40,477 nt of DNA, taken from IMG/VR virus record IMGVR_UViG_2778261450_000004. The stretch is one strand, 5' to 3'. Positions 25,452 through 28,238 of the stretch are shown here, one piece after another (the stretch's first letter is position 1; every line of letters starts with the position of its first letter). This DNA is from a virus. Its lineage: Duplodnaviria > Heunggongvirae > Uroviricota > Caudoviricetes. The notes under the pieces were generated by a model. It saw nothing but the letters and a program-made list of their open reading frames with translations. It was not told the DNA's origin and made no database searches. A program made the position numbers and the translations under genes.

Positions 25452-27176
25452 TTAAAGCCTGAAAAACTTATCACCCTCTCCAAGTTCAAGCACAACACTT
25501 TTATTAATGAAATCTTGGTCAACATTCTCCAACTTGTCTTTAAGAATAGCTAATATATATTGACCATTAATGCCTGAAGCTATCTCGAATAACTTATTTA
25601 TTTGATTCACATGGATTGCTTCAATTCCATCATGAGCTATAAAACGCGGTGTTCTAGCTTCTAAAGACTCCTGGACAGATAAATAGGCAAAATCTAAAGA
25701 GGCAACTTGAGCTTTCTTTTTCCCCTCTCCCTGATTACCTGATGTGAGCAGAGTTCCTAAAGGTTCAATGGTAAAAACGAAGGAACCGGAAGAATCTTTA
25801 TAGGAAAGAATATATTCATCCTGATATAATATTTTGGTATATAAAGAAAAATAGGAATTGAATAGTGCAAGACGTTTGTTAAAATCGTCAAGTTTAGATT
25901 TCAATCTATCTAACACATTATTGAACCTTGTTTTTAGAATATTAAGTTCATTCTCCACTTTTTGAATTTGAAGTAGTCCTTCTTCAAGTCCACCCTTTTC
26001 CTCAAATAATGAATTTAATTTTTTCTGCATTATTTGCAGGTCTGACAATGTCCCATGCGAAGACAAATTTTTTAAAAGCTCAGATTCCATATCTAATAAG
26101 CTTTTTAGCTCACCTTTATATCTGCAAATTTCTTGCAACACTGGCTGCATTTGTTTCCTGATAAACTCAGCCTTTTTAACAAGCATTTTATTATGAAACG
26201 AAAGCAGCTCAGAAAACTCTTTATTTAAGTTACCTAACCGTTCAGTTGCTTCTAAATACAACTTCTGTAGATCTAGTGGATTGATATTTTCATGGCTTTT
26301 TTCTAAATCCAGTATAGCTTTATCGTTTAATTTTTTCTTGAACTCCAAAGATGATAGTGTGATAGAAACTTCACTAATTTTAATTTTTAATTCATTTAAC
26401 TCAGCAAGCATATCATTATAAGAGTCTGCTACTTGAAAATTAGAAATTAACTCTTCTTGCGCTATAATATCTCTATTTATAATTGCAATAGCTTGTTCCA
26501 AAGCATTCTTTGAACGATGGCGAGTAATTACCTCATAATCGGATTTCGCCAGTTTATAGGCTTTAGTTACTGATTGTTTTTCATCCAGAATTTGTGAGTT
26601 ACCGAACCCAAACATAAAGAGGTTTAACGTTTCATATTGTGTATTAGAACCCATCTTTATCGTTTTCAATGCGTTCGACATCTTGTCCTGCGAATTTCGA
26701 ATAACACGCCCCATAATCTCTCGTATGGTCGGCTTTATCGCGGAATCCAAATATATTGTTCTTTTTAAAGCCTCGTTGAAATCTTTAGCCTTCGTATATG
26801 ACTCTTCATTAATTGAGGCTATAACCTTAGTTTTATTAGTCTCAGATGTAATTTTACGTTTTATTTTAATTACAGGTGCGGCGTTATTATTCAAGTCTTT
26901 TGTGAGAATTAAGCAAAACTCAACCTCGTTCTCTATCAAATAATTTTTTATAACCAGATTTTCTTTCTTGAATTCAGGGTCGGTATAAAAATTCAGTTGC
27001 TCTGCTCCAAAGCAAAAATCCAAAGCTCTTAATACAGTAGTTTTTCCTACACCATTTCCGGTTTGCTCTTTGCTGGAAGTGTTTCGGTCAATAATCAAAT
27101 TAACGCCAATGTGAAATTCGATATCACGAATCACTCCAAGTCTGAAAGAACTAACGATTAGCCGTTTCAAAAACAT
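25452..27176 (-). CDS. SMC/RecF/RecN-like ABC ATPase with central coiled coil
   Basis: N-terminal P-loop TGNGVGKTT (codons about 40-48, DNA about 27036-27060), heptad-rich middle, C-terminal SGNQGEG / PRFIAHDG / AIH resembling ABC signature, Walker B and H-loop. GGAGA SD; AT-rich. Confidence 0.8.
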   Translation of the reverse strand: MFLKRLIVSSFRLGVIRDIEFHIGVNLIIDRNTSSKEQTGNGVGKTTVLRALDFCFGAEQLNFYTDPEFKKENLVIKNYLIENEVEFCLILTKDLNNNAAPVIKIKRKITSETNKTKVIASINEESYTKAKDFNEALKRTIYLDSAIKPTIREIMGRVIRNSQDKMSNALKTIKMGSNTQYETLNLFMFGFGNSQILDEKQSVTKAYKLAKSDYEVITRHRSKNALEQAIAIINRDIIAQEELISNFQVADSYNDMLAELNELKIKISEVSITLSSLEFKKKLNDKAILDLEKSHENINPLDLQKLYLEATERLGNLNKEFSELLSFHNKMLVKKAEFIRKQMQPVLQEICRYKGELKSLLDMESELLKNLSSHGTLSDLQIMQKKLNSLFEEKGGLEEGLLQIQKVENELNILKTRFNNVLDRLKSKLDDFNKRLALFNSYFSLYTKILYQDEYILSYKDSSGSFVFTIEPLGTLLTSGNQGEGKKKAQVASLDFAYLSVQESLEARTPRFIAHDGIEAIHVNQINKLFEIASGINGQYILAILKDKLENVDQDFINKSVVLELGEGDKFFRL

Positions 27177-27403
27177 AATATCAAATCTCCATTTTCATTA
27201 GCATCAACCAGACCTAATAAATATAGCCAATTTAAAGTGTAAATATACTGTGTGAATGAAGGCTTGTTATTTTTAGATATAAATTCATTATACAACTCTA
27301 TAATATCAACATGCGAATAAGCATTTGAACTCATGCATTCTAATAACTGAGCCCCCAAGTAATATAAGGTTTGACTTGGTTTTGTTATATCAGAGATAAT
27401 CAT
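27167..27403 (-). CDS. Small protein (78 aa), middle gene of the ATPase operon
   Basis: ATG at 27403 overlaps the upstream TGA (ATGA); 10-bp overlap with the ATPase gene. Confidence 0.55.
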   Translation of the reverse strand: MIISDITKPSQTLYYLGAQLLECMSSNAYSHVDIIELYNEFISKNNKPSFTQYIYTLNWLYLLGLVDANENGDLILCF

Positions 27404-27996
27404 ATTGGTTTTTCCAGGATTTTACACTCTACGAATGCATGATAAACGATAAAAGAAGCATGAAATTCGATGTCTTCGCTTGTGTAATTTATTGCCATGA
27501 GAGAATTTTGACATTTCTTAATGATGTGTTCTATTACACAATCTATTATCCAATCTGCAAACTCCCTTACCAATTGAATCATTAAATCATTCCGCTCCTG
27601 AGCATTCTTGCAGCGCTTATATGCTTCTCTATGTTGAAGTAATAAATTACCTCGACAATCAAGATATCGTGAATTTATGTTTTTCAGGGCCGTTTCCTTA
27701 GCAGTAGGCATACTTTCATTTAATGTTTCATATGCTTTATCTATCATCGAAGAATATAGATAGAACCCTTCAATACGTTCTCTATGTTTTATAACATCAT
27801 TGAAGTCTATCTTATTCTCAATATCATATGGCTCGTAGTCATTATTTGTACGGGAATCAATGACATTCGTATCAACTAAAATACCAACAAGATCCATAAA
27901 AATCGATGGGGACTTTATAATATCAACAGAGTTAGAACCGACAACCAGCTGCACATTACGTGAGTATTTCCCTGCCCGTTGAGTAACATCTACCAT
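27400..27996 (-). CDS. 198-aa protein of unknown function (candidate effector or adaptor)
   Basis: AGAGAGG SD before the ATG at 27996; contains RGNLLLQH, which fits an Rx4-6H pattern only weakly; no other motif recognised. Confidence 0.6.
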   Translation of the reverse strand: MVDVTQRAGKYSRNVQLVVGSNSVDIIKSPSIFMDLVGILVDTNVIDSRTNNDYEPYDIENKIDFNDVIKHRERIEGFYLYSSMIDKAYETLNESMPTAKETALKNINSRYLDCRGNLLLQHREAYKRCKNAQERNDLMIQLVREFADWIIDCVIEHIIKKCQNSLMAINYTSEDIEFHASFIVYHAFVECKILEKPI

Positions 27997-27998
27997 GA

Positions 27999-28238
27999 TC
28001 AGCCTCTCTTGTTTTCGTTATTTCCAAAAACGACCGTTTGATTATTTTTTGAATGACTGCCACTTTTTTGAATTATTGTATGCCCTGAACTTGTTTTATT
28101 AACAATAAACGTACCCAAAAATGTTAGAAGAAAGCCACCAGAAGTAAACATCAATGGCACACTATTGAAGTGATATGCAGCAAAGCCAGCGCAAGCAACG
28201 AATGTCAGAGAAAATATTCTAATCATATTTCGGATCAT
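27999..28238 (-). CDS. Small two-helix membrane protein
   Basis: Hydrophobic segments IFSLTFVACAGFAAY and GGFLLTFLGTFIV; ATG at 28238 with an AGGA SD; stop 2 bp before the next start. Confidence 0.45.
   Translation of the reverse strand: MIRNMIRIFSLTFVACAGFAAYHFNSVPLMFTSGGFLLTFLGTFIVNKTSSGHTIIQKSGSHSKNNQTVVFGNNENKRG

Follow-up and report, generated by a model that had tools for sequence, protein, structure and literature searches.

What does a compact four-gene operon built around a coiled-coil ATPase do in a lambdoid prophage, and which of its products could act as the effector? The operon lies in a window of 40,477 nucleotides (the whole stretch of DNA that was analysed; IMG/VR record IMGVR_UViG_2778261450_000004, Caudoviricetes), and an initial annotation, made from the sequence without database searches, had flagged it as a candidate uncharacterised anti-phage or conflict system. 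On balance we favour the reading that it is a four-gene ABC-3C conflict system of the Lamassu superfamily, in which an adaptor protein uses a short motif to engage a membrane effector, leading to abortive infection.

Layout, families and setting of the operon

The four coupled minus-strand ORFs (79, 198, 78 and 574 aa) were all recovered by an ORF check as originally annotated. Gene 1 (27999..28238, minus strand) encodes a membrane protein, the proposed effector, of 79 aa when read from its ATG; an alternative GTG start at 28244 would give 81 aa. Gene 2 (27400..27996, minus strand) encodes a 198-aa CTD10-only adaptor, gene 3 (27167..27403, minus strand) the 78-aa middle component MC6, a counterpart of LmuC, and gene 4 (25452..27176, minus strand) a 574-aa 3C-ABC / DUF2326 (YydD-type) ATPase with a coiled-coil insert, assigned through Pfam, PADLOC, AF2 and Foldseek. 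The membrane-protein gene stops 2 nt upstream of the ATG of the 198-aa gene, whose GAGAGG Shine-Dalgarno sequence lies inside the last codons of the membrane-protein gene; the MC6 gene overlaps both of its neighbours, through an ATGA at 27400-27403 and through 10 bp at 27167-27176, and both of these previously noted overlaps are real. Windowed GC content is 0.30-0.35 over 25501-28000 vs 0.44-0.54 in the flanks, bearing out the AT-richness claimed for the block. A promoter/terminator scan returned no convincing promoter upstream of gene 1; it gave 19 promoter-like sites vs 13 ± 3 expected, and is uninformative in DNA this AT-rich.

Within a Rac-like lambdoid prophage, the block fills a variable slot as accessory cargo and is not a core phage module. 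Of 5426 complete E. coli genomes 17 carry it, as against 3651 with the neighbouring DUF977/DUF1627 genes, in line with the cargo slot suggested earlier. Relatives fill the slot with other cargo, e.g. a SIR2 gene cluster, and elsewhere the block's homologues sit outside prophages, beside integrases or defence-type genes. No near-identical match to the block was found in 50,697 deposited phage genomes, and a scan of viral contigs contributed only 10 more loci. The block adjoins hok/sok.

Three of the products fall into ABC-3C families. The ATPase matches Pfam DUF2326 (PF10088) at 2.4e-13 (50.4 bits vs a cut-off of 28.7); the 78-aa protein matches MC6 (PF20293) over its full length (residues 7-77, 2.6e-13, 50.2 bits vs a cut-off of 27.2), in a family whose homologues have 75-87 aa; and the 198-aa protein matches CTD10 (PF20275) with 40.8 bits vs a cut-off of 28.1. 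The 198-aa protein is thus a third component with a CTD-family ending, as defines ABC-3C, and the order CTD10 - MC6 - DUF2326 supports the earlier proposal of a Lamassu/ABC-3C-like system with effector, small protein and SMC-type ATPase in this arrangement. The label "uncharacterised" suits the transmembrane (TM) gene, which has no family, better than the three-gene core, which RefSeq already names an "ABC-three component system". NCBIfam and PHROGs returned nothing useful for any of the four proteins, and PADLOC had no model for the 78- and 198-aa proteins even when E values up to 1 were admitted. The weak Rx6H motif (RGNLLLQH) first noted sits in a variable part of CTD10, and we assign it no role.

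The ATPase carries the annotated P-loop (Walker A, TGNGVGKTT, residues T39-T47; 27036..27062, minus strand), in which 16 diverse homologues all retain G40, N41, G44, K45, T46 and T47. Its Walker B strand (RFIAHD, R511-D516; 25629..25646, minus strand) was located by alignment and by the strand at residues 512-516 of the AF2 model; the strand and D516 agree with the Walker B-like motif first noted, but the canonical Glu after the Asp is missing (G517). Throughout the aligned family D516, E519 and H522 do not vary, and residue 517 can be G, Q, R or K; the alignment puts H522, formerly read as an H-loop-like His, at the D-loop position instead. The AF2 model (pLDDT 82) has long helices at about residues 194-451, between two head halves, in agreement with the long central coiled-coil segment expected. 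Foldseek ranks the YydD model 9a6c_A first (8.5e-21), followed by the LmuB chains 9uxh_F, 9hqx_B and 9nyg_B (1e-10 to 7e-14), so that the predicted fold is closer to YydD and LmuB than to SMC or Rad50. Among PADLOC models the candidate PDC-M68B matches over its full length at 7.7e-40, and LmuB models only at 7.5e-6 and 3.1e-4; a profile of the ATPase searched against PDB sequences retrieved no solved structure, only coiled-coil noise. The modelled fold suggests that the ATPase is the LmuB counterpart, and we propose it as the sensor of the system. The best structural matches of the adaptor domain are to LmuA, and the CTD10-only adaptor may correspond to the C-terminal oligomerisation domain of that protein.

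A motif in the effector-domain position

Where the effector lies was addressed by comparing 84 loci with the ATPase, i.e. the window and 83 from other genomes or metagenomes. Roughly 60 encode a single HNH+CTD10 protein of about 270 aa and a few encode SMEK_N+CTD10; these HNH and SMEK relatives have no TM partner. About 20 others encode a CTD10-only protein of 183-201 aa and, just ahead of it and coupled to it in translation, a TM protein of 53-130 aa. The adaptor of the window has no N-terminal effector or enzymatic domain, with only 28 residues ahead of CTD10, and about 25 G/N/Q-rich residues stand where most relatives have HNH or SMEK. All-in-one homologues (HNH-CTD10, SMEK_N-CTD10) occur in sister lineages, and in the ATPase tree the CTD10-only-plus-TM arrangement recurs in 7 or more deep lineages, in several phyla. 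Searching 1.84 billion representatives with a profile gave 797 CTD10 clusters; from the best 150 hits we newly fetched 144 sequences, of which 112 are 170-225 aa long, and most of those start with such a motif. More than 100 clusters are CTD10-only at 50% identity. The motif-for-effector-domain architecture is the new part of this comparison; TM/motif variants may already be included in Krishnan et al. 2020.

The initial annotation had suspected the membrane protein as a possible effector, and its conservation as a fourth gene across phyla supports that suspicion, the effector role itself being predicted. In every class-A locus examined a small TM gene lies directly upstream of the CTD10-only gene, and such loci come from Enterobacterales, Bacteroidota and others. 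Hydropathy gives the 79-aa protein two hydrophobic segments (about 5-24 and 29-46), in line with the two-helix membrane protein first described, followed by a tail of some 33 residues, predicted to be cytoplasmic. The membrane part consists simply of a TM helix or hairpin and is not of the Bell/HeLo type, and at the thresholds applied the protein could be assigned to no family in Pfam, NCBIfam or PHROGs. Only marginal partial PADLOC matches to ZorA were obtained for the 79/81-aa protein (E 0.0032 and 0.07), and we take them as chance.

The most informative feature of the operon, absent from its earlier description, is a motif common to the tail of the membrane protein and the N-terminus of the adaptor. 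The tail copy (I55-N74; 28017..28076, minus strand) reads IIQKSGSHSKNNQTVVFGNN and was defined by alignment with the N-terminus of the gene 2 product; the adaptor copy (V4-S23; 27928..27987, minus strand) reads VTQRAGKYSRNVQLVVGSNS and occupies the effector-domain position of the relatives, in a low-confidence AF2 segment with short strands. The two align with a score of 43 (z 6.7), which none of 2000 shuffles equals. Among 20 loci, the tail matches its cognate N-terminus significantly in 16 (at most 4 of 2000 shuffles); the match is weak in the other four (z 0.7-2.8 in the L071/L090 lineage, 0.6 in Providencia L096 and 1.8 in L104). The motif itself differs from lineage to lineage, as in the pairs KQKQKIGKEGTGYQTGSGGTININ / KQKQNIGKEGTGYQTGDNGVININ (L016), HSGSGDNVAVRGN / HSGTGDNIYIEGN (L105) and ISGDNNRQAGRDIS / INGDGNNQAGGDLT (L103), and the two copies co-vary: in a permutation test on 17 lineage representatives the cognate pairings sum to 841 vs 415 ± 44 when permuted, a value that 0 of 100,000 permutations reach, and 11 of the 17 have their best match in their own cognate partner.

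In the window and 19 other loci the motif is at the C-terminus of the proposed effector and the N-terminus of the sensor-side protein, and the paired genes overlap or lie no more than 12 nt apart. The motif segments contain 43-52% G/N/Q/S/T and 1-2% Pro (52% and 1% in the TM tails), vs 23% G/N/Q/S/T in the CTD10 domain; this composition resembles that of amyloid-signalling motifs, and the G/N/Q-rich motif may be amyloid in nature, although no Pfam amyloid-motif family is matched by the operon proteins. Two other sources of the pair were considered. Compositional bias is rejected by the shuffles and the cross-lineage controls, and a recent tandem DNA duplication is rejected because the two DNA copies are identical at only 26 of 60 nt (43%) and match at 6 of 20 third positions.

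Proposed mechanism and rival explanations

By analogy with solved Lamassu complexes, the DUF2326 ATPase dimer and MC6 would keep the CTD10 protein monomeric and inactive. Aberrant or phage DNA, e.g. DNA ends, would then trigger ATP-dependent engagement of the ATPase heads and free the CTD10 protein, which would oligomerise through CTD10 and thereby cluster the roughly 20-residue G/N/Q-rich motifs of the adaptor. The clustered motifs would engage the matching motif in the cytoplasmic tail of the 79-aa protein, probably by cross-beta (amyloid-like) templating, and clustering of the membrane protein would permeabilise or depolarise the inner membrane, aborting infection and so defending against phage. 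A nuclease-free system with a shared, co-evolving motif suggests a new trigger of cell death for this sensor family. More tentatively, and with somewhat less than even confidence, we propose that a Lamassu-like sensor of the SMC/ABC type signals to a minimal membrane killer by prion-like templating, and that this wiring is ancient and widespread, its clusters at 50% identity numbering more than 100 and coming from Enterobacterales, Bacteroidota and further phyla.

A matching motif implies that two proteins interact, but it does not specify how. The two copies could thus pair stably as non-amyloid beta-strands and so anchor the ABC-3C complex at the inner membrane, e.g. near the site of phage DNA entry, with killing or exclusion left to the CTD10 oligomer, to the ATPase on DNA or to a host factor. 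A tether of this kind would suit the enteric TM protein, which is small and in which no pore or enzyme domain can be recognised; we nevertheless consider it unlikely, since the homologous HNH and SMEK systems have no TM partner and their sensor therefore need not be at the membrane, while the motif fills the exact position of the effector domain and the operon offers no other candidate effector.

The small TM protein might instead be a hok-like toxin restrained by the other three products, so that the block would stabilise the prophage by addiction. Small TM proteins are common among type I toxins, and the mobile character of the block and its place next to hok/sok are what such a module would show. 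The ABC-3C/Lamassu superfamily members studied so far are, however, defence systems, and relatives exchange the TM protein and motif for nucleases fused to the same adaptor domain, a replacement that fits immune effector swapping and not antitoxin logic; we therefore judge a toxin-antitoxin-like role improbable.

It is less probable by some way that the ATPase is an SMC/Rad50-like factor for prophage replication, recombination or packaging. Its SMC/Rad50-like fold and the position of the block between replication and nin-like regions would agree with such housekeeping, but the block is rare beside the flanking phage genes, has no PHROG family and no near-identity among the deposited phage genomes, and its homologues also occur outside prophages. 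Finally, the 198-aa protein might be a degenerate effector whose nuclease has been lost, and the 79-aa protein an unrelated moron or a spurious ORF, as its want of a family assignment might hint. This reading is refuted in practice by the comparative data, i.e. the recurrence of the CTD10-only-plus-TM arrangement in deep lineages and in so many clusters, the translational coupling of the genes and the co-variation of the motifs, and we give it hardly any weight.

Relation to known systems

The B. subtilis YydB-YydC-YydD system supplies the named DUF2326 protein, YydD, which as 9a6c_A is the best structural match of the ATPase. We take YydB to be a larger, phosphoesterase-type effector protein. 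The literature searched contained no published function for YydD and nothing relevant on DUF2326, PDC-M68, YydD, CTD10, or amyloid together with Lamassu. In PADLOC only the ATPase matches the candidate system PDC-M68, as PDC-M68B, and the other three proteins have no PDC-M68 model, so PADLOC would call no complete PDC-M68 system here. With ABC-3C systems of the CTD10/MC6/DUF2326 type (Krishnan, Burroughs, Iyer & Aravind 2020) the operon shares families, gene order, coupling and mobile-element context, and the RefSeq names for the block are ABC-3C names; it differs in the third component, which canonically is an effector domain fused to the CTD and here is a motif of about 25 residues, complemented by a membrane-protein gene as the fourth of the operon.

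Type II Lamassu (LmuA-LmuC-LmuB; DdmABC; Salmonella LmuACB structures 9hqu/9hqx) offers a mechanistic parallel: the operon has an ATPase of LmuB-like fold and a small middle component. In Lamassu, LmuA ends in an oligomerisation domain that LmuB2-LmuC keep sequestered until DNA ends are sensed, and the effector domain can be exchanged freely (10.1101/2025.03.14.643221; 10.1101/2025.06.23.660979); control through a sequestered and then freed oligomerisation domain is likely shared. In contrast, the window ATPase has no detectable sequence relationship to the solved LmuB chains, its partners are of the CTD10 and MC6 families vs CTD7 and MC3 in Lamassu, and the Cap4 nuclease of Lamassu is missing, the putative effector acting in trans.

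The second parallel is amyloid signalling. In E. coli Bab/Agp, signalling of this kind between the products of adjacent genes leads to abortive infection (10.1101/2024.11.07.622273), and in the literature searched this is the only bacterial system with experimental evidence of a biological role for amyloid signalling; the logic of all-in-one versus two-gene architectures has been described for fungal NLRs and bacterial BASS pairs (10.1101/2020.01.06.895854), and the BASS pairs known so far are linked to NLR-like sensors in filamentous bacteria. If our proposal is true, the operon unites the Lamassu release of a sequestered oligomerisation domain with amyloid templating of a membrane effector, and effector domains can give way to a short "plug" motif through which an effector is recruited in trans. 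This would account for a large class of "effector-less" ABC-3C systems that defence finders recognise only in part (by the ATPase alone in PADLOC). On the more tentative reading of an ancient and widespread wiring, amyloid signalling would be a general modular "wire" of bacterial immunity, beyond NLR/TGP sensors and multicellular bacteria. The lineage-specific motif pairs lend themselves to specificity swaps. The system is small (2.8 kb) and native to an E. coli prophage.

Set against the known amyloid pairs, the proposed sensor of the operon is an ABC/SMC-type three-protein machine where theirs is an NLR/STAND or a TPR-GreAB-PIN (TGP) protein, and its putative effector is no more than a TM helix or hairpin where theirs is a Bell/HeLo bundle or an enzymatic domain; amyloid formation by its motif is a prediction, while for BASS11 a stacked cross-beta model is reported. 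Yet the likeness to Bab/Agp (E. coli ECOR25, BASS11), HET-S/NWD2 and the Bell/NLR BASS pairs extends to adjacent, often overlapping genes, to a C-terminal motif of the membrane protein that equals the N-terminal motif of the sensor side, is about 20 residues long, G/N/Q-rich and co-varies within pairs, and to the existence of all-in-one homologues and carriage by prophages in E. coli.

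The DUF2326, MC6 and CTD10 core

The four minus-strand ORFs of the block have exactly the coordinates and lengths given in the initial annotation, beginning with the gene for the 79-aa small membrane protein (27999-28238, -) and continuing with those for the 198-aa protein (27400-27996, -), the 78-aa protein (27167-27403, -) and the 574-aa ATPase (25452-27176, -). The coupled or overlapping junctions that it described are all present: a 2-nt gap between the membrane-protein and 198-aa genes, with a GAGAGG ribosome-binding site within the end of the former, an ATGA overlap between the 198-aa and 78-aa genes, and a 10-bp overlap between the 78-aa and ATPase genes. 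Its AT-richness is borne out by windowed GC, which is 0.30-0.35 across the block versus 0.44-0.54 in both flanks. A consensus scan of the 330-bp intergenic region upstream of the block gave no promoter; a perfect TATAAT occurs at 28343-28348 (-), some 100 nt before the membrane-protein gene, but lacks a good -35 element.

Three of the proteins match Pfam families above the gathering thresholds: the ATPase is DUF2326, the 78-aa protein is MC6 ("ABC-three component system middle component 6"), and the 198-aa protein is CTD10 ("C-terminal domain 10 of ABC-3C systems"); RefSeq already names the core genes as an ABC-three component system. In PADLOC, the ATPase matches the candidate PDC-M68B over its full length (7.7e-40) and LmuB weakly (7.5e-6); the PDC-M68 models match none of the other three proteins, no PADLOC model matches the 78-aa or 198-aa protein, and the membrane protein gives marginal ZorA matches only. 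In its AF2 model (pLDDT 82), the ATPase shows two halves of a head with long helices between them, and the model's top Foldseek match in the PDB is the B. subtilis YydD model (9a6c_A, 8.5e-21), followed by five LmuB chains of Lamassu cryo-EM structures (7e-14 to 1e-10), with SMC, Rad50 and JetC ranking below these. These Pfam families, RefSeq names and fold matches bear out the ABC-3C/Lamassu reading at the family level, and the core is a new member of a computationally defined kind.

The Walker B strand (25629-25646, -) of the ATPase carries its aspartate, D516, and this residue is followed across the DUF2326 family by G, Q, R or K, leaving no catalytic Glu. Within residues 516-548, E519 and H522 are invariant in the family, and K/R-D-K occupies the position expected for the H-loop His, at odds with the H-loop-like motif that had been proposed. 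The missing Glu and altered H-loop position suggest slow or unusual ATP hydrolysis; inefficient hydrolysis by LmuB has been remarked on in a Lamassu preprint.

RefSeq starts the MC6 gene at an internal ATG (10868-11035 in the comparison locus L001), giving a 55-aa product. The real gene is likely the 78-aa ORF overlapping the upstream stop codon, since the Pfam match covers residues 7-77 and every homologue is 75-87 aa long.

Architectures of CTD10 proteins and a paired motif

We walked upstream of the ATPase gene in 84 loci, the window and 83 with this ATPase family from other genomes or metagenomes, and added further loci from a viral-contig scan and contig look-ups of CTD10 homologues. The CTD10 protein has three architectures across this collection. 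In about 60 loci, an HNH nuclease and CTD10 are joined in one protein some 270 aa long, and no small gene is conserved upstream of it; a few loci from Firmicutes and phage contigs encode SMEK_N fused to CTD10; and in about 20, the window among them, the protein is 183-201 aa long and consists of CTD10 preceded by just 25-30 residues or so. In every case of this last class a small, translationally coupled gene lies directly upstream, and its product has one or two transmembrane helices and then a 30-45-residue polar tail. In a rough neighbor-joining tree of the ATPases, the HNH class forms one large clade and the CTD10-only class falls in at least seven deep lineages, among them Enterobacterales and several groups from Bacteroidota and metagenomes. 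Among 1.84 billion cluster representatives, a profile search identified 797 CTD10 clusters; 112 of the 144 newly fetched proteins among the top 150 matches are 170-225 aa long, with a search profile biased towards the CTD10-only class. Most of the 112 open with a G/N/Q-rich stretch (e.g. IxGDGNxQAGGDI, HSGxGDNI, QxGGxGSxNxQ); a few truncated HNH-class fragments are among those that do not.

One and the same motif occurs in the membrane protein's tail and at the N-terminus of the CTD10 adaptor encoded next to it, and this motif varies by lineage. The tail and adaptor copies are, respectively, IIQKSGSHSKNNQTVVFGNN and VTQRAGKYSRNVQLVVGSNS in the window and, in comparison loci, TQKGGAFSQNTQNNYF and QQHGGMGSTNIQNNYL (L003), KQKQKIGKEGTGYQTGSGGTININ and KQKQNIGKEGTGYQTGDNGVININ (L016), VSFKSKGDYSQQSMGDI and VKFNAEGPNSQQSFGDI (L099), VRNIGSNSVVINGDGNIN and IRDITGNNNYIINGDGTIN (L091), ISGDNNRQAGRDIS and INGDGNNQAGGDLT (L103), and HSGSGDNVAVRGN and HSGTGDNIYIEGN (L105). 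Local BLOSUM62 alignment of the last 32 tail residues with the first 36 adaptor residues was scored against 2000 composition-preserving shuffles, a match being significant when at most 4 shuffles reached the observed score; this holds for 16 of 20 loci. Among 17 lineage representatives, cognate pairing sums to 841 versus 415±44 when permuted (0 of 100,000 permutations reach it), and 11 of the 17 tails have their cognate partner as the single best match; control pairing with an internal stretch of CTD10 gives scores of 12-20. Weak matches are seen in the L071/L080/L081/L090 lineage, in L104 and in the Providencia locus L096. The last (3591-6453) is a divergent variant adjoining a TIR-domain gene: its ATPase is too diverged for Pfam DUF2326, and its 130-aa upstream partner, a transmembrane helix plus coiled coil, has only a short GDF(I/Y) motif in common with the adaptor.

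The window copies occupy separate DNA segments, 28017-28076 (tail) and 27928-27987 (adaptor), that are identical at 26 of 60 nt and match at 6 of 20 third positions, ruling out a recent duplication and indicating that the likeness is preserved in the protein sequence. G/N/Q/S/T make up 43-52% of the motif segments and Pro 1-2%, compared with 23% G/N/Q/S/T in the CTD10 domain, and the AF2 model shows short strands in the adaptor motif at low confidence. The membrane protein, initially suspected as a possible effector, is a genuine fourth component of the block, linked to the adaptor by the shared motif.

Prophage setting and distribution

The window is a Rac-like lambdoid prophage, marked as such by a match to RalA, the sRNA antitoxin of RalR (38743-38921, -; 218 bits), and its block is 99.9% identical to that of E. 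coli SA31-1. The block is bordered by a DUF977 gene on one side and hokD/sok on the other. Of 5426 complete E. coli genomes, 17 have the block, within prophages differing in their other modules, whereas the flanking DUF977/DUF1627 genes occur in 3651; the block had no near-identity match among 50,697 deposited phage genomes and was found in a few IMG/VR prophage contigs. In relatives, the slot between DUF977 and the hok/nin region is filled by different cargo (2700-5024 in L101, from E. coli FDN-9; 3391-5854 in L100, from ETEC4090), one example being a cluster of four genes, which encode a SIR2 protein, a non-canonical NTP pyrophosphatase and two hypothetical proteins. The block is accessory cargo, as its initial placement in a cargo slot had it, and not a conserved core phage module; the slot resembles a hotspot for cargo or defence.

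Immediately downstream of the block is a hok/sok type I toxin-antitoxin locus (24848-25173, -), comprising the Hok ORF (24848-25003, -) and sok (24998-25173, -; Rfam, 106 bits). The prophage also carries two AT-rich toxin pairs. The first (18496-19633, -) is a type II heat-labile enterotoxin A/B (Enterotoxin_a 2.7e-116, LT-IIB 1.6e-41); the second (21201-22458, -) is a pertussis-like ADP-ribosyltransferase (Pertussis_S1 5.6e-15) with an adjoining putative binding subunit, whose sole Pfam match, Pertussis_S2S3, is at 19.8 bits, under the threshold of 27, and whose counterpart in the near-identical SA31-1 prophage is labelled by RefSeq a subtilase-family AB5 toxin binding subunit.

Proposed mechanism and likeness to known systems

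Putting the release and oligomerisation logic of Lamassu together with the signature of amyloid signalling, we propose that the ATPase and MC6 would hold the CTD10 adaptor until aberrant phage DNA is sensed, upon which the adaptor would be released and oligomerise. Its N-terminal motifs could then nucleate a cross-beta assembly to which the membrane protein would be recruited via its tail and clustered, compromising the membrane. In NLR systems, the amyloid fold is nucleated by oligomerisation of the sensor-side protein. The tail is probably cytoplasmic, because both ends of the two-helix hairpin in the window are basic and several single-helix versions have a strongly basic juxtamembrane segment (net +4 to +5 in L010, L016 and L025). 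We lean towards activation of a transmembrane effector coupled through the motif; true amyloid templating is plausible, if somewhat doubtful.

A stable, non-amyloid tether that merely places the complex at the membrane is unlikely, given that the HNH-type relatives need no membrane partner and the block encodes no other effector. Proximity to hok/sok would suit a toxin-antitoxin-like addiction role, which we consider quite improbable, since it fits poorly with effector swapping across the family. The comparative and distribution data effectively exclude both degenerate or unrelated neighbours and a phage housekeeping role. In the literature searched, a set outside which the founding ABC-3C paper falls, we found no link of amyloid motifs with Lamassu or ABC-3C, no mention of CTD10, MC6 or DUF2326 in a defence context, and no description of this combination with a minimal transmembrane effector.

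The genomic signature of amyloid signalling is known from fungal HET-S/NWD2 and from bacterial BASS pairs (10.1101/2020.01.06.895854). As in those pairs, one product of the block is membrane-targeting and bears a motif of about 20 residues at its C-terminus; the adjacent gene's product has the same motif N-terminally, where adaptor homologues have their effector domain; and the motifs co-vary within pairs and are G/N/Q-rich. This combination is the defining signature. Amyloid signalling has been found experimentally to drive abortive infection by the prophage-borne E. coli Bab/Agp pair (10.1101/2024.11.07.622273), and those members of the broader Lamassu superfamily that have been studied defend by abortive infection (10.1101/2025.03.14.643221; 10.1101/2025.06.23.660979). 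Lamassu structures show that LmuA has its oligomerisation domain at the C-terminus, where LmuB2-LmuC sequesters it; upon DNA-end sensing this domain is released and assembles into an active oligomer, and the N-terminal effector makes no contacts within the complex and is freely swappable (10.1101/2025.03.14.643221; 10.1101/2025.06.23.660979). The sensor chassis of the block is a known one, and by analogy with these systems it may act through a signalling principle that is also known.
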